Positions 19,233 through 56,385 of a stretch of DNA of 64,000 bases are shown here, in pieces; position 1 is the stretch's first letter, and each line of letters starts with the position of its first letter. Position numbers and translations under genes: made by a program. Location of the stretch: the NCBI GenBank assembly GCA_951406725.2, contig OX597815.1, positions 80,724,001-80,788,000 of the forward strand, given 5' to 3'. The stretch is from Octopus vulgaris. Lineage: Eukaryota. The notes beneath the pieces were generated by a model. That model was not told the DNA's origin. It made no database searches and worked only from the letters and a program-made list of their open reading frames with translations.

Positions 19233-20207
19233 CGAGGAGGTACCCAAAAGTAACCGGAAACGTTCTCTTTGGGACAAACCCGTTTTAGTTCATGCTTCCG
19301 CCGCTAGAAGCCACTTGGTGCAACCCTCAGGAATCTGTCTGCCGACAGGCGACGTTCGGTGGAGTCGTACTGTCATATAGACCATCTTTGTTTTGCAGTG
19401 CTTCTCCTCTGTTCGTCGATTTTCGCGATGGCTGAAACGAAGAAACACCAGGATTTCTGTTGGGGAAAACGGCGGCCGACACAGTTGCCATGCTTCAAAC
19501 AGCTGATGAGGACGCTACTATGAGCAAATCACATATTTACGACTGGCTTTCATGCTTTATGAATTGTCATTTGTCGCTTGAAGACCAACCTCGTTCAGGA
19601 CGAGCGAAGACCTCCCTAACGAATGAAAACATCACGAACATTCCTCAACTGATCTTGGAGGACCGTCGCTGAACAATTGACAAACTTTTTGATGTGACTA
19701 GTGTGTCCTAGAGCTCCTGCCAACGAATTTTGAGCGAGGAATTGCGAATGAAAAGAGTTGCATCAAAATTTGTGCCTCGCTTGTTCTCAGATGATGAAAG
19801 GCAGTCACAACTGAATGCGTGTCGTGAACTGACGGAACAGTTGGAAGGCTTGGTCAAAGAAATATGAAACAATTTTTAACCAAAAATGACATGACCCCGC
19901 TTACCCACCTTCCCTATTCACCCAATTTTGCTCCTTGCGACTTTTTTTTGTTCCCCCGAATGAAAAAAGTCCTTAAAGGAAAACTTTTGGTAGATGTCGA
20001 AGAGGTGAAGAAAAAAAAAACGAAGGAAGTGTTAAAAGGCATCACTTTGCAAAAGGTCCAGGACAGTTTCGAACAGTGGAAAGCTCGTCTGGTCCGATGC
20101 ATCGGTTCAAATGGAGAATACTTTCAAAGTAGTAAAAGTGTAAACATGTAAAACTAAGTGAATAAAATAATATTGCAAAATTCTAGTTTCTTTTGGGTAC
20201 CCCATCG
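19233..20207 (+). mobile_element. Mariner transposon, internally deleted, with TIRs and TA TSD
   Basis: TIRs CGAGGAGGTACCCAAAAGTAACCGGAA / CGATGGGGTACCCAAAAGAAACTAGAA with TA at 19231-32 and 20208-09. Motifs SLEDQPRSGR, KFVPR (WVP-like) and YSPNFAPCDFFLF. Confidence 0.95.
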
Positions 20208-40972: not shown

Positions 40973-42337
40973 ACACACACATATCAAGAACTGGGGTCGA
41001 TATAATCGTTTCAATATATCTCGTAGTCATGGCCTGTTCCTGCATCACGAATATATTTTGTTTCTTCCTCCATTCAGGCGACTTTATGAGCATTTCAATT
41101 AAAATATATTAAAGAATGCTCCACATATAAGTATATAAGTGATTTCTGGTTTCTTGTTCAATTAGTAGAAATTATACATACATACATACAGACGCACACT
41201 CATATACATACACACATATATGAAGTTTCTTCTTTATCAACACTCCAAACTTGTTAAGGCATACCATAGCTGGCCTCAATACCATTGGCATGCTCGATTT
41301 TTATGCTACCTTTTTCACTGTTCGAAATCTAAACGAATTTGTAAAAGATCTTATTCTTGTACATATAATCGATTTACTACTTTTTCTATCATCATCGTCG
41401 TGGTCGTGGCTATTGATATTTGCAATATAAACAGCTCCGACGAAGAATTGAATTTGGCAGGGATGTTTTTTTTTTTTCTTTTTGCCAAAGGGCGTTTGAC
41501 ATTTGAGCTTCCGCCTTGGAGTGGGAACTCAAAGCTTTTTTCTTTTTTTTCTTGGATATATTTATTTTATATTTTTAAATACATTGTTTATTCAGAACTT
41601 AATACACCTTTTTCTTGATATGCAAAAAGAGCTGCTTGCCACAAACGTGTAGCAAAGAAAACAAGACAAAAATTTTGCAGTGCGTTTTGAAAATTGTTAA
41701 ACTGATAAATCTGATTCTCAAAAAAAAAAATCAACTGACATCTGGCAACTGCAAAGATAATCCCTTTTAAACGAAGACAATCACACTTTAACAAGCACAA
41801 GTGGTGAAAATGTAAACGTTGAAAAACAAAAGCGACAACAGAAACTTGCAGTTTGCAAATATTGTGAGCTAGGACGTAAATCTGAACATGGTTAGGTTCC
41901 AAAAATACAAATGAAAAGGGCAACATTTCACTGAAGCTTGTGCAAGAAAGTGCAAGAGAAGAGTGATTTACCATTGCTTCTCAAAAGGGGAAGTAAGCGT
42001 CCATACACAATTGAAAGGGTAGTTATAGAAAGTCAATATGTGGCACGATATATACACCCTCTATATCTGGGCGTATGCAAATATGTGCCTGGTCTTTACA
42101 ACTGAAGGCGAAAATAAGAAAATATGTGAACTTGGTACATCACACATTACCTCATAGGTGTTGCTATGTGGGTAATTGAATGACAGTGGTAAGGTCTTTG
42201 GTGGTAGCGTTGACTCTGGGTTTGCCGTTACATCAGCCGCTCATTACAGGCTGTTGGTAAGTGCAGTGACAACGTTCAACAACACCGGGTCGTATGGGAT
42301 CTGCATAAACATGCTGATAACAAAGTCTCCAGAAAAT

Positions 42338-42435
42338 CACGGGGTTACCCACGGGGTTACCCACGAGATTACTCACGGGGCTACCCACGGGGCTACCCAC
42401 GGGGCTACCCACGGGGCTACCCACGGGGCTATCCA
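42338..42435. repeat. 12-bp minisatellite (CACGGGGCTACC) x about 8
   Basis: Read directly from the sequence. Confidence 0.9.
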
Positions 42436-42884
42436 TGAGATGTACTTAATTGTGGTTGTGGAGATAATGCAGGCACACAAAAATTCAGTAACGCACTAAA
42501 ATTCTAAACTGTATGATGCAGTAGTATAAAGAGATGAATAGGTTGTTAATTAACTAACCACTTTTTGTTGCTATTATCGCTTGATCACAGCACACCATAC
42601 TACACTAGCTCACGCCACACCACACCGCAAGATACCGTACCGTTAAAGTTATAAACCAAACAAATATATTAAGTATCGGGTCTCATGATAAACAGTTGTC
42701 TGTCATAGAGAAAATATGTACGCTGCAAGCATATATTTTTATGAGGAACTAACACATTAAACAATTTTTGGCTTTTGAATAAAGACTTGTTTTGATGCGC
42801 CTTCCGTGATTCTAGTTTATTTTAAGACTGTATAGCGTATGAATGAATGTTGAATAGTGTCTGCATATACATACATACATACAT

Positions 42885-50634: not shown

Positions 50635-52661
50635 GGAAGGAGGAGGACGATCGTGATGGTGTTTACGATGATGATGGTGGGGGTGATGATGATGATGGCC
50701 ATCACGACCATAATGAGGAAGTTGGTAAAACTATATATGCTCTTGCTACCTCTGATTATATTTAATTCTGTCGCAACAGTGATGTTACAATTGTTGATGG
50801 TGTTGCTACTCTTGTTGTAGTTGTTGTCTTCATTTCAACCGCTGTTGCTTCCTGTAGTTAATGGTCCGACAGTTAATAATTTTGCCTTGTTTTTTTGCAT
50901 TTTATTTTACCGTTTGGTACTAATTACAATTGTTGATGTTACTAATACTGTGGTTAGTGTCATTGCTTTCGTTGTTGTTTACCTTGATGTTCGTGTTGTT
51001 GTTGACATTAAAATCTGTGTTGCTACCTCTGATGCCTGAATCTTCCAGAGAGCCTCCATGCAGTCGTTCAACCAGCTAGAAATAGCTGTCACATCTACAA
51101 AACACCTTTCACGTCTCAAGAAGAGAAACTTAGGACATATTTGGATAATATGATTCTGAGTTCTTCGCAGTTATAAAAATGCAAGATGGTGATAAACGGA
51201 ATGGTTTTCATCATAGATATGCTCTATCAGGTCAGACCAGGGGCTAAACAACAGGAATAATCATTATTTGTTGTGGCTATTGTTACAATTTTACATCTGC
51301 TGTTGTCCTTGCTGCTGCTTTTGTAGCTGTTGTGGAGGTCATTGATGTGTAATCCCAATTAGGTTTCTTCAGGACTTTGTCATGGAAGTATATAACTAAA
51401 TGTGGGAGAAAGCGAGCCACCTGAGATGGTAAAATTAGAAGCTAAATTTCCCTAGTATCACACACTATAGTCTTTGAAAATGTTTGAAAGAAAAAAGAAG
51501 AAAGAAATGAAATAATAGTGACAGTTATGCTTGGATAGAATTGACCTGAGAATTTAAACAACTATAGTCGAATTTTGAGAAAAATGCCTCAAATTTTCTT
51601 TATACACACACGCGCGCGCGACGTACGTACATACATACATACATACATACATACATACATACAAGCACATACATGCACGCACATGCACATACATACACAT
51701 ACGTATGTGTATGTATGCATATGTCTGTATGTGACCATGGATATGCAGTTCTTCACATTTATCTAGTCCCATGTTGGAAATACTACTTTGATGAATCTAA
51801 AATATATTCTACCAGGATCTGAGTTTAATCCAAAAATTGATAACACAAATAATGTTAAGTAATGTTGAATTTGTCCCTCATCATAAAATCATGCTTTGAA
51901 AGATTTTCTTTTTCGATTCGGTAAGTGAAACTCTCATGTTCTGTAAATAACATGCTTTCCGGTATTTCGGATGTCCAGTCTAAAAGACTTAAACCAATTT
52001 TGACATAAAATTTTAAATGACAGATAAACATGATATTTGTGTACCATTGACATATAGACCCCGTGGATCATTTATTGTTAAAAATTTTTCCTTTAGATTT
52101 AAAATACAGCCTTCCTTTAGGGGTTAGAATTAACTTATATAAAAGTAATAAACTGAATCTTGTAAAATGACACAACAATTTTTCATGACATATTTTAGGA
52201 ATATAAATGCATCCTCGATACTAGGAAAAGCGGTACATAAAATAAATGAGCAGCTACCGTGGCCGACCATTTAATACTCTACGAGTTATTCAACGTCATT
52301 CGTTGAAAATTAGTTCAACAGACAGAAATTTGAGAAAAAGAATTTCTGACTTGTATCTTATGCTTCAACGTTCTATTTCAGAATATCTGCCACGCTCACT
52401 TATCTTTCATAAAATTTGCTGGAGGGCAGTACTTCTTTCTCTAAGCTCATACGGAGAAAATATTTTATCGAATACTAGTAATTAACGACGGATGCAGTAT
52501 TAGTACCTAAAGACAACCTTTATATCTAGCTTAACGTGAATGCCTCATTAGAACGTCGAATACTGCAGTATTTTCCTTGATACGGCCTCTTATATAGATG
52601 CATGGTACATAAAACAGATATTTTCCTAGAAGACGAGAAACATCTGTAATAGGTGATGAAA

Positions 52662-52707
52662 CTGTCAGGTCACGTAATTTCAGTCTATTGGACCTCCTCA
52701 GTAGCAG
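52662..52707 (-). ncRNA. Hammerhead motif, tandem copy with U16.1>C
   Basis: CUGCUA-CUGAGGA-GGUC-CAAUA-GACU-GAAA-UUACGUGA-CC-UGACAG. Confidence 0.65.
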
Positions 52708-52756
52708 GTATCCATTGTTCGTAGAAGATGAAAATCATCTGTTAGGTGCACTGAAA

Positions 52757-52802
52757 CTGCTAGATCACGTGATTTCAATCTACTGGACTTCCTCAGTGGC
52801 AA
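52757..52802 (-). ncRNA. Hammerhead motif, tandem copy with intact core
   Basis: UUGCCA-CUGAGGA-AGUC-CAGUA-GAUU-GAAA-UCACGUGA-UC|UAGCAG. Confidence 0.75.
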
Positions 52803-53629
52803 GTGTTCGGTGACCGCAAACCAGCCGCGATATGTAGAATATCGCTGCCAATGTATATATATATATATAATTTCAGTATCTTTTCAGTCAGCAAGCTTAA
52901 TGATAAATAAAAAGTACTAAGATATGGACATACAAAATAACAAACTGTTGCAAGTGTTTGATAAACTTCTACGTGATTGCTTAACCTTCCTGAAATAAGA
53001 TCCAAACCCTCGTCAAATTATACCCGACAGTCTAAACTAAGACTTAATATAGTCTTATATACTCCTGGAAAATGACAAAACTATCGTGACTGGAATGCTT
53101 TTTTTCTTTCTTTTCTTTTTTGTTAAATGTCGGCTGGTCAGAGATACGCCAAAAGAACAAGCAATAAATCTAATTATACATAATATCTAAAAGAATGTGG
53201 TATATGTGTGTGAATGTGGTTGTACGTGTCTGAAAGTGCACCTCCGCATGCGTTTGTGCACCCACGTGTGCATGATTTAAATATTCTCTTTACGCTGAAT
53301 ACATAACATGGAAACAAATAAAAATATCAGTATTCTGAGATGCATACTGACTGAAATACGTCATGTGTCATAATGACGTATTTCATACATCAGGTGCAAA
53401 AACGTACGACCGGTTTGAGAAGCGATTCAAAACCTTAGCAGGTCGTTTGTGCATCTGATGACGGAAAACGGTTATAGTCCTACCTTCGTATACACACGAG
53501 GTACATTTCAGAAGTTTTGAAACTTTTTTAAGAAATGTAGTTATAACTGTTCTAAATTATTGTAATTTTAGTATATCATTACCATATGCTTAAAAAGATG
53601 ACCAATCAAATTTTGTTATTCTAGACTGA

Positions 53630-53778
53630 GACAGCTGAGACAGCTTCCCAACCACATTGGTCTTGGTTCAGTCACACTGCGTAGCAACTTGGGCAAGTAT
53701 CTTCTACTATAGCTGAGGGCCGACTAAAGCTTTGTGAGAGGATTTGGTAGACGGAAACTGAAAGAAGCCTGTCGTATG

Positions 53779-54201: not shown

Positions 54202-54209
<8 letters not shown>

Positions 54210-55110
54210 ATTAATGATATCAGGGTAATAAAGATTTTAGAAATTTTTACTACCACTGGCCTAGCGTATAGAAAAATTTGTCAATAGACTATATATTATT
54301 CATATAAAATACAGTGTATATTTAAACACATTAAGAGGTTTCCATCATAGGAATCCTTTACGCTAGAAAGAACAGCTAAAATCCAAACCACTAATTAGGG
54401 ATAAATTCTCGAAGGGAATGAAAAATAAAAACATTTAAAAACATTTATTTTATTTACTAAAATAACTAAGAAACTATGGTCCAAGAAAGAGATGGTAAAT
54501 GTTTTTATTTTTCATTCCCTTCGAGAATTTATCCCTAATTAGTGGTTTGGATTTTAGCTGTTCTTTCTAGCGTAAAGGATTCCTATGATGGAAACCTCTT
54601 AATGTGTTTAAATGTACACTGTATTTTATATGAATAATATATAGTTTATTGACAATTTTTTCTATACGCTAGGCCACTGGTAGTAAAAATTTCTAAAATC
54701 TTTATTACCCTGATATCATTAATTATGTATAATGATTTCTGGTAGATTCGTTCGAAGAATTTGCCGGCATCTTTTCTGCTGTCAACAAAAAAGACTGCGC
54801 TTGCGCAATGGATTTGCAAAAAAAAAAAAAAATTTTAATGTATAAGCAATGAGGCACATGCTGGATTGGCCTCGTTGTTTATATATTTAATCTTTGGCGT
54901 CCATGTTGATGAAGACTTCGCCTGGTAAACCATTTTATTTACTAAAATAAGTCAGAAACCATGGTCTAGGAAAGAGATGGTAATGTTTTTAATTTTCATT
55001 CCCTTCGAGAATTTATCCCTAATTAGTGGTTTGGACTTTAGCTGTTCTTTCTAGCGTAAAAGATTCCTATGATGGAAACCTCTTAATGTGTTTAAATGTA
55101 CACTGTATTT
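54202..55110. repeat. Inverted + partial tandem repeat block (PLE-like architecture)
   Basis: 54202-54436 is a near-perfect inverted copy of 54496-54731, and about 54445-54625 is repeated directly at 54931-55110. Confidence 0.9.
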
Positions 55111-55129
55111 AATATATATATATATATCT

Positions 55130-55320
55130 GGTGTGTCTGTTTGTCCCCCCAACATCGCTTGACAACCGATGCTGGTGTGTTTACGTCCCCGTTACTTAGC
55201 GGTTCGGCAAGAGAGACCGATAGAATAAGTACTAGGCTTACAAAGAATAAGTCCTGGGGTCGATTCGCTCGACTAAAGGCGGTGCTCCAGCATGGCCGCA
55301 GACAAATGACTGAAACAAAG
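55130..55320 (+). mobile_element. SINE family B 3' half
   Basis: Near-identical to the 3' halves of other copies. An inverted, decayed 5' half follows at 55345-55500. Confidence 0.85.
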
Positions 55321-55874
55321 AAAAAAAAAATATATATATATATATACGTACGATGGGCTTCCATACAGTTTCTGCATTTTAGCTCACAAAACATTGAACG
55401 GCTCTGGACTATAGTGAAAGACACATGTGCTGTGTGCCGTGGGACGGAACCTAGAACAGCATGGTTGCAAAGAGAGTTTCTTAATCACATAGCTATTCCC
55501 ACATCTTTTACTGCAAATATGTGTTCGTGCCAAAATCAAAAAAAATAATATATATTTTGGTGAAACCATATAGAAAAAATGCTATTGAAATATGGCGCAG
55601 AAAAAATATGACGACATACACTTCTAACACATATATGATTAACTTAAAATATTAAAGTCAAATAATTGAAGTGAGAATCTCATAAAAAGAGAAAACTTCT
55701 ATTAAAATCTGATTAGTTATTTGTATTCGCTTATATACATCAGGAGTACATTGCATATATTGCATTCGTGCAGGAAGCCCCACTCATACAGATGCAAAGA
55801 GAGAAGAGAGAGAAAGAGAGAGGGAGAGGTGGGGGATAGCTCGACAGATACAAACAGACAGACAAAGAGCGAGG

Positions 55875-55957: not shown

Positions 55958-56385
55958 TTCTTTTATCTTCAACTTGTTTCAGTCATTGAATTGCGGCCAT
56001 GCTGGGGCACCACCTTGAATGGTTTTAGCCGAACAAATCGACCCCTTTACTTATTTTTTAAATGTGGTACTAGCCCTTTTATTGAACAGATACGTTACAT
56101 AAAAAACGTAAACAAACCAGCACCGGTTTGATCAAACAGTGGAGGAGGTGGGACAGGCACAAACAACACAACTACACACTCGTACATATACAATATGTAC
56201 ACATATACACATATATACGTACAACGATCTTCTTTTAGGTTCTGTCTATTAAATCTACTCAGAAAACTTCGGTCGACACGGGGGCTGAAATAGAAGACAC
56301 ATATCCAAGGTGCCATATATTGGGACCTGAAAGTCGAACCATATGATTGGGAAGCAGACTTCTTACCACACAGCTATATCTGCGC
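55958..56385 (-). mobile_element. SINE family B, diverged copy
   Basis: cttgtttcagtcattgaattgcggccatgctggggcacc...ccaaggtgcc...cttaccacacagc. Confidence 0.8.

Follow-up and report, generated by a model that had tools for sequence, protein, structure and literature searches.

The minus strand of the 64-kb stretch of DNA analyzed here (hereafter the window) carries a decayed copy of a dispersed repeat in which two type I hammerheads are spaced 95 bp apart. The repeat belongs to a multi-copy family in which an upstream flank, a hammerhead, and a body are linked, the junction that creates the 95-bp spacing is locally unique, and the copy has decayed. We consider it probable that the locus is a neutral, decayed copy of a noncoding repeat of ≈300 nt with one canonical type I hammerhead per unit, that is, a non-LTR retrozyme. 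The family is apparently an unreported, Penelope-dependent retrozyme, with a one-off partial duplication at this locus. This reading keeps the central element of the original prediction, a remnant bearing dimer-competent type I hammerheads of the retrozyme type, which is supported by the predicted architecture and by the decay. It departs from that prediction in the size of the unit: a self-processing circular element of ≈95 nt is not supported, given a junction that is single-copy in all three DNA runs, the lack of any listed joint with a 95-nt period, and the loss of U16.1 from the second copy.

Results

Two hammerheads are spaced 95 bp apart

Both alignment and a structured descriptor confirm the two minus-strand hammerhead copies and their 95-bp period. 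The direct copies at 52623–52709 and 52718–52804 (87 nt, 95 nt start to start) share 77% ungapped identity; blastn of copy against copy within the window returns 79.8% over 89 nt (E = 1e-16), and the lag-95 identity spans ≈52806 to 52718. On the minus strand, CUGAGGA is followed in each copy by a stem II of 4 bp closing a loop of 5 nt, then by GAAA and a helix III that is palindromic. A strict descriptor combining the core, a 4-bp stem II, GAAA, a fully self-pairing helix III, and U-H was compared with 300 dinucleotide shuffles. It matches the window once, at copy 1 (52796), and the shuffles average 0.0033 matches, with 1 of the 300 holding a match. When U16.1 is relaxed, the window holds two matches, which are the two copies; the shuffle mean is then 0.02, and none of the 300 shuffles holds two.

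Less specific searches were less informative. A loose core pattern is no rarer than chance (8 matches in the window, 6.9 expected), and an Rfam scan of the window gave no match at the gathering score; below that threshold, Hammerhead_HH9 falls over copy 2 with 15 bits against a cut-off of 52 (E = 4.8). A single-copy descriptor that demands at least three stem I pairs has no match in the window, as each copy's own stem I is interrupted close to the core. Searching both copies, the body, and the flanks against the window by blastn yielded no third copy (next best E 0.088–0.18). A candidate third hammerhead at 52900–52845 was rejected by eye, having an A at G8, no stem II, and no U-H before the 6-mer. 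Thirteen metagenome loci that combine a core with a palindrome were judged to be chance; each has a single core and matches the window over at most 19 nt, and inspection by eye shows neither stem I nor stem II.

The hammerheads lie within a larger repeat copy

The coordinates of the locus are collected in Table 1. The whole copy is ordered as a linker-like stretch, the (TA)n tract, the upstream flank, the two hammerheads, the tail, and the body, and depth in the DNA run of organism A (X1) is back at the single-copy level at 52478 and at 52904–52951.

Table 1. Features of the repeat copy (X5 and X10 are the DNA runs of organisms C and D)
Feature	Coordinates	Strand	Basis
Whole decayed repeat copy, ≈423 bp, 39% GC	52481..52903 (ends approximate)	-	Summed contig depth above single-copy level
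(TA)n tract, 5′ side of element	52852..52869	.	X10 and X5 contigs: element flank adjoins tract
Family upstream flank, starting with 6-mer UGGCAG (52850-52845)	52803..52850	-	Multi-copy depth
Copy 1 of 95-bp segment: extended hammerhead and 47-nt tail	52715..52809	-	Lag-95 identity
Hammerhead 1, type I, intact core; own stem I with one C-A mismatch	52752..52809	-
Hammerhead 1, 5′ arm	52802-52797	-
Hammerhead 1, core	52796-52790	-
Hammerhead 1, stem II	52789-86/52780-77	-
Hammerhead 1, GAAA	52776-73	-
Hammerhead 1, palindromic helix III; triplet AUC	52773-64	-
Hammerhead 1, predicted cut site	52763|52762	-
Hammerhead 1, 3′ arm	52762-57	-
Tail hairpin after cut site, 6 bp, 3-nt loop	52726..52740	-	MFE and centroid fold
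Copy 2 of 95-bp segment: starts at 5′ strand of distal helix I, continues into body	52620..52714	-
Hammerhead 2, layout as hammerhead 1, 95 bp on	52657..52714	-	Enzyme strand intact
Hammerhead 2, dead substrate side: C at 16.1, own stem I mismatched	52669 (C at 16.1)	-
Noncoding body, 134 bp, multi-copy, linked to hammerhead in other copies	52481..52614	-	Depth, joints

Several of these parts recur beyond the locus. The tail-hairpin stretch is, by eye, also self-complementary in the loose-end consensus of other copies, and the 6-mer UGGCAG, able to pair with the 5′ stem I arm of either copy and the only such 6-mer in 52440–52950 besides the copy-1 3′ arm, is also present in an X10 contig. The body has no second copy within the window. 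The (TA)n tract may belong to the family unit, or it may be a microsatellite into which the element inserted. No direct word longer than 6 nt is common to both flanks of this old copy beside (TA)n, and no target-site duplication, which exceeds 4 bp in those retrozymes that have one, was found.

The window is animal noncoding DNA, with 32–40% GC per 2 kb, 187 tandem-repeat rows, and dense microsatellites. Its microsatellite density and SINE-like motifs suggest a genome of octopus type. It holds no tRNA gene in its 64 kb, and no host gene was identified in it. Among its 218 filtered open frames of at least 55 aa, no Pfam family scored above the cut-off; six weak sub-threshold matches were returned, none to a reverse transcriptase (RT) or an endonuclease. 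With no RT or GIY-YIG match in these 218 frames, no autonomous Penelope-like element (PLE) is seen in the window, and the six scanned frames that overlap 52481–52903 match no Pfam family.

The architecture is canonical, and the predicted cutting capacity is limited

Helix I consists of 6 bp followed by a 3 × 1 internal loop and a distal stem, which is 3 bp long in copy 1 and 4 bp long both in copy 2 and when copy 2 is cross-paired with copy 1. Helix II has 4 bp, and helix III has 2 bp beyond the core pair and is capped by a palindromic tetraloop; the pair 10.1–11.1 is A-U or G-U instead of the usual G-C. This geometry matches the canonical metazoan type I hammerhead and not the minimal PLE type. 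The canonical form is described in PMC4209133 with a helix I of 6 bp, a helix II of 4 bp, and a helix III of 1–2 bp with a palindromic loop, and the minimal PLE hammerheads described there have 7–8 bp in helix II, 4–5 bp in helix I, and a base bulged out ahead of stem II. Unlike the latter, the hammerheads here combine a 4-bp helix II with a 6-bp helix I and a distal stem, and the window holds no PLE frame.

Much of the pairing originally proposed for the two copies is borne out. The stem II differences preserve pairing (A-U to G-U, and G-U to G-C), and the arm of one copy pairs perfectly with that of the other, as the copy-2 5′ arm CUGCUA and the copy-1 3′ arm UAGCAG match at 6/6 positions. 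The self-complementary helix III of the proposed consensus is present in copy 1, but the copy-2 palindrome is imperfect in this genome; likewise, that consensus captures the overall layout but masks the C at 16.1 of copy 2, which turns the triplet into ACC.

The own stem I of each copy has five of six pairs, so that neither is complete. Joined together, the copy-2 enzyme strand and the copy-1 substrate strand make one complete site, with stem I at 6/6, stem II at 4/4, a 9-bp helix III, and AUC. Constrained folding places this cross site 2.2 kcal/mol above the minimum, at ≈0.2% of the ensemble, with a cross stem I probability of ≈0.01 and inter-copy helix III pair probabilities of 0.65–0.91. 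The reciprocal site has no A15.1–U16.1 pair. Because copy 2 lacks U16.1, the locus could, on established hammerhead chemistry, cut at most once and would release no 95-nt monomer or circle. The predicted fold of the 95-nt monomer does not surpass those of its shuffles (z = −1.07), and other decayed segments of the window give z values of 0.29 and 0.53; decay of the window segments could account for the poor folding. Between the copies, 1 of 11 core positions and 13 of 46 other positions differ, which is not significant (Fisher p = 0.26).

The hammerhead, flank, and body are multi-copy

We aligned the contigs of four runs, X1 (organism A, possibly the source of the window), X5 (organism C), X10 (organism D), and X15 (guessed to be RNA), to 52400–53100 at 80% likeness, a procedure that copies less than 80% alike or arrays collapsed in assembly would escape. 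The four are drawn from 24 runs listed under five coded organisms, and X1 was covered to ≈80%. Part of the stretch is present in 14 of the 24 listed runs, with no RNA run listed among them. Most of the aligned records are diverged: 103 of 136 in X1, 118 of 162 in X5, and 80 of 101 in X10 are less than 90% alike. At 52778, the summed depth is 49, 95, and 55 times that of the contig of the locus itself in X1, X5, and X10, respectively, a ratio that is not a copy number, and body depth is 14–73 times the single-copy level at 52512 and 52581. We read these depths as dozens of related loci at least. The hammerhead, the upstream flank, and the 134-bp body are thus all multi-copy, and 55–72% of the aligned records continue into unlike sequence.

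A single stem II variant is found in 25 X1 contigs. Among the 40 of 65 difference rows shown, none lies on a copy-1 core position, and N7 (52792) and stem positions vary. Other copies have U16.1 at 52669, in X1 and X5 at all depth except the contig of the locus itself; in X10, 8.3 of 47.5 remains. Since the alignment selects for conserved cores, core conservation in other copies is supportive only. The family is also polymorphic at 52761 (in X1, 17 contigs and 901 of 1905 depth). X15, which may contain DNA, contributes five short pieces, 80–95% alike, all of which run into unlike sequence and none of which comes from the locus. Contigs carry no information on ends, strand, or level, and these pieces bear on expression in neither direction.

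The unit appears longer than 95 nt

The 95-bp spacing depends on the junction at 52715, where the tail of copy 1 meets the head of copy 2. Depth at this junction is 55.4 in X1, 26.9 in X5, and 4.31 in X10, equal in each run to that of the contig of the locus itself (ratio 1.0), whereas the hammerhead 60–80 bp away reaches 43–95 times the junction depth. Of the 463 pieces, 29 were listed, with the longest retained, and those that cross the junction are all contigs of the locus or its orthologs. Few records fit two places (2, 2, and 1 in X1, X5, and X10), and within the 80% likeness limit none of the nine listed joints (7 + 2) has a 95-nt period. A single-copy junction in 3/3 DNA runs, together with the lack of a 95-nt joint, makes the 95-bp period look locus-specific. 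The 95-bp period was not found at other loci among the contigs of the three DNA runs at 80% likeness. One result foreseen as fatal to the original prediction, a one-off local duplication without further copies, is borne out by half: the spacing is apparently one-off, but the hammerhead itself has many other copies. Coverage is also thin at 52633, in the tail of copy 2, which means that divergence by itself may reduce depth.

Other joints point to a longer unit. Hammerhead and body are linked in four skip-joint rows and eight contigs, and an X10 contig with a single hammerhead has upstream-flank-like letters joined directly to 52714, the head of the copy-2 type. The end of the body leads back to the upstream flank in three joints: one back 334 (X5), one back 338 (X10), and one from 52869 to 52487 with 19 added letters (X5). 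From the last, the one joint with known letters, we infer a unit of ≈307 nt (383 + 19 − 95), assuming the spacing of the window; the contig behind this figure (depth 24.3, near single-copy) may continue the orthologous locus rather than represent another one. Head-to-tail order is seen in these three joints only, with no full array in the aligned contigs, and the copies may for the most part be solo or ends of PLEs.

The duplication is old, and the locus is decaying

Orthologous contigs from organisms C and D carry both copies. They differ from the window at 16 of ≈470 positions (3.4%) and 18 of ≈439 positions (4.1%), stem positions included. The 23% difference between the copies far exceeds this ortholog divergence, which places the duplication before the split of organisms A, C, and D. 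Arithmetic on depth and distance to contig ends indicates that both orthologs have C at 16.1 (52669), an intact copy-2 palindrome, and G at 52665. In the organism C ortholog, a further change at 52760, in the copy-1 3′ arm, disrupts the only stem I still intact. The locus is decaying independently in each lineage.

Discussion

Relation to known hammerhead repeats

The family resembles the metazoan non-LTR retrozymes described in PMC7229834 in its canonical type I hammerhead, short palindromic helix III, noncoding character, GC content below 50% (39% here), and many copies. Experimentally studied monomers in that account measure ≈170–400 nt, the genomic range is 150–450 bp, and a mollusc example is known, with mussel units of 350–390 bp; our inferred ≈307-nt unit lies within the range. 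Unlike those elements, the circles of which are described as highly self-paired, the present locus is decayed, has a local second hammerhead at 95 bp, folds no better than shuffles, and has no target-site duplication that we could find. On balance, the family appears to have the testable structural features of a non-LTR retrozyme, tandem order being seen indirectly.

A broader size range is predicted by Li, Clavereau and Pollet 2026 (10.64898/2026.07.22.740005), whose sample is given as 31 vertebrates, 3 insects, and 1 anthozoan, with no mollusc. The tandem type I hammerhead units in that work occur as monomers, dimers, and multimers, and both 95 and 307 fall within the predicted consensus lengths of 51–972 bp, which average 98 bp in the only sarcopterygian sampled. 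The original statement that described monomers are longer than 95 nt is accordingly true of the experimentally studied ones in PMC7229834 but not of these predictions, and size gives no novelty. Eight of the nine dimers assayed in that study showed no cleavage. Unlike its "active" class, our locus lacks two consecutive complete hammerheads, which lowers the case for an active locus and not that for the origin of the family.

The hammerheads are also like those of PLE pseudo-LTRs (pLTRs; PMC4209133, PMC6765202) in being type I, with a palindromic helix III, dimer folding, partial tandem arrangement, and widespread solo remnants. Non-LTR retrozymes themselves are thought to borrow the PLE reverse transcriptase, in a cycle of tandem transcription, dimer cleavage, circle ligation, and reinsertion (PMC7229834, PMC7761336, PMC4209133). 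By analogy, a head-to-tail array of the present family would be transcribed, and neighboring hammerheads would join by way of their palindromic helix III, or a hammerhead would fold alone on its short helix III (the structure shown here). Established hammerhead chemistry predicts that each would cut after N-U-H, and, as outlined in PMC7229834, the resulting ≈300-nt monomers would be ligated into circles. A PLE enzyme would then copy the circles into DNA of more than unit length and insert it elsewhere, perhaps at (TA)n. The 95-bp period would go back to a single old event: the extended hammerhead and tail underwent partial duplication, or ≈210 bp were lost between two full units.

Alternative explanations

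The strongest competitor, which we regard as unlikely but deserving of serious attention, is that the repeat is the terminal pLTR of an autonomous PLE, its copies being mostly truncated ends and the 95-bp pair a 5′-truncated partial tandem produced by insertion. PLE pLTRs are described as always carrying type I hammerheads with a palindromic helix III and partial tandems (PMC4209133, PMC6765202, 10.1101/2021.04.23.441226), the adjoining (TA)n is in line with reports that some PLE clades target microsatellites (10.1101/2021.04.23.441226), and many aligned records (55–72%) run into unlike sequence. The canonical form of the hammerhead argues against a pLTR, albeit not decisively, as some PLEs carry less atypical forms (PMC4209133). 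Against it, too, stand the three joints in which the body end returns to the upstream flank, the one with known letters showing no room for an ORF, and the 218 frames of the window without an RT or GIY-YIG match in Pfam. Because retrozymes are derived from pLTRs in 10.64898/2026.07.22.740005, the two readings are continuous with one another. Chance resemblance within a local duplication, by comparison, is refuted. The loose core is as common as expected and Rfam has no match at threshold, but the structured descriptors average only 0.003–0.02 matches per shuffle, depth peaks on the hammerhead in 3/3 DNA runs, and the differences seen in other copies are at N7 and in the stems.

Two further proposals give the 95-bp pair itself a function, past or present. 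We think it improbable that the 95-nt cut-to-cut segment is a fossil of an internally deleted mini-retrozyme, once an RNA circle with a compensated stem I of its own, that integrated in or beside a full-length unit at the cut site. The segment takes in the complete extended hammerhead together with the tail hairpin, its inner arms UAGCAG and CUGCUA pair at 6/6, and its outer arms also pair in the organism C and D orthologs through the G at 52665, a pattern expected of an RNA unit or a double hammerhead; comparably short units have been predicted for other animals (10.64898/2026.07.22.740005). A neutral duplication simulation, however, yields such a reciprocal position in 3.2%, 6.6%, and 9.5% of cases at 8, 12, and 15% change per copy. 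Since the pattern arises neutrally and 52761 is polymorphic in the family, the arm-pairing signal is weak. The junction is crossed by no listed contig other than those of the locus and its orthologs, the listed joints include none of 95 nt, the fold is poor (z = −1.07), and the 3′ cut site is dead. If it were true, such an element would be about half the size of any experimentally shown retrozyme circle and would set a lower size limit for a mobile self-cleaving animal circle. Lower still in our estimation stands a working double hammerhead, in which copy 2 would be kept as an enzyme strand only and a host transcript would be cut once, after 52763. The complete cross site, only 2.2 kcal/mol above the minimum, and the inter-copy helix III probabilities of 0.65–0.91 are in keeping with this proposal, but the active site occupies ≈0.2% of the ensemble and cross stem I has a probability of ≈0.01. 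The organism C ortholog, moreover, is mismatched in cross stem I (52760), the orthologs vary at 16/≈470 and 18/≈439 positions with stems included, and the window has no identified host gene.

Novelty and significance

A non-LTR retrozyme family thus remains our preferred reading, and its novelty is partial. The original suggestion of an undescribed system does not hold for the kind of repeat, as ribozyme-bearing repeats of this sort are known from many animals, but it may hold for the family, which is apparently unreported. Our literature search found no paper on a cephalopod retrozyme family, one of which supplementary tables may list, and the word "ribozyme" is absent from the main text of a 2026 octopus repeat annotation (PMC13282606), the supplements of which may differ. 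The finding, of modest importance, is a hammerhead-bearing family of retrozyme type common to at least three related animal organisms, with the locus itself a fossil. If intact arrays still form circles, the family would provide an extra lineage for testing the mobilization of retrozymes by PLEs.

Sequences adjoining the hammerheads

A 6-mer upstream of the two hammerheads can pair with either 5′ stem I arm, and it is present in another copy of the repeat family as well. This 6-mer could form an inhibitory alternative stem that holds the ribozyme off, or it could be the relic of an earlier hammerhead. On the other side of the predicted cleavage position, a short hairpin appears to be retained among other family copies. 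Short multi-copy stretches, with raised depth in the DNA sequencing runs X1 and X5, adjoin the element at 52400-52447 and 52976-53023.

Features near the hammerheads and the inverted repeat
Feature	Position	Strand	Location
Arm-complementary 6-mer	52850-52845	minus	42 nt upstream of 5′ stem I arm
Short hairpin	52726-52740	minus	directly past predicted cut site
Inverted repeat and partial copy	54205-54728 and 54932-55120		

Other repeats in the window

The 233-bp inverted repeat has arms that are 98% complementary, 58 nt between them and (TA)n on its flanks. A third copy of the sequence, partial and in direct orientation, follows at a distance of 484 bp and matches at 96% across 139 nt. Judging from these sequence features, we read the repeat and its third copy as a putative young fold-back or MITE-like element. 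Pieces at 53680-53760, 55160-55310, 55420-55500 and 56020-56380 presumably resemble octopus SINE families. At 19436-19669 (plus strand), the Mos1 transposase HTH domain is matched weakly and below threshold (E = 0.0067), which marks a possible mariner fragment. A GC-rich 12-bp tandem repeat of ≈8 copies at 42337-42446 is atypical against the AT-rich background.
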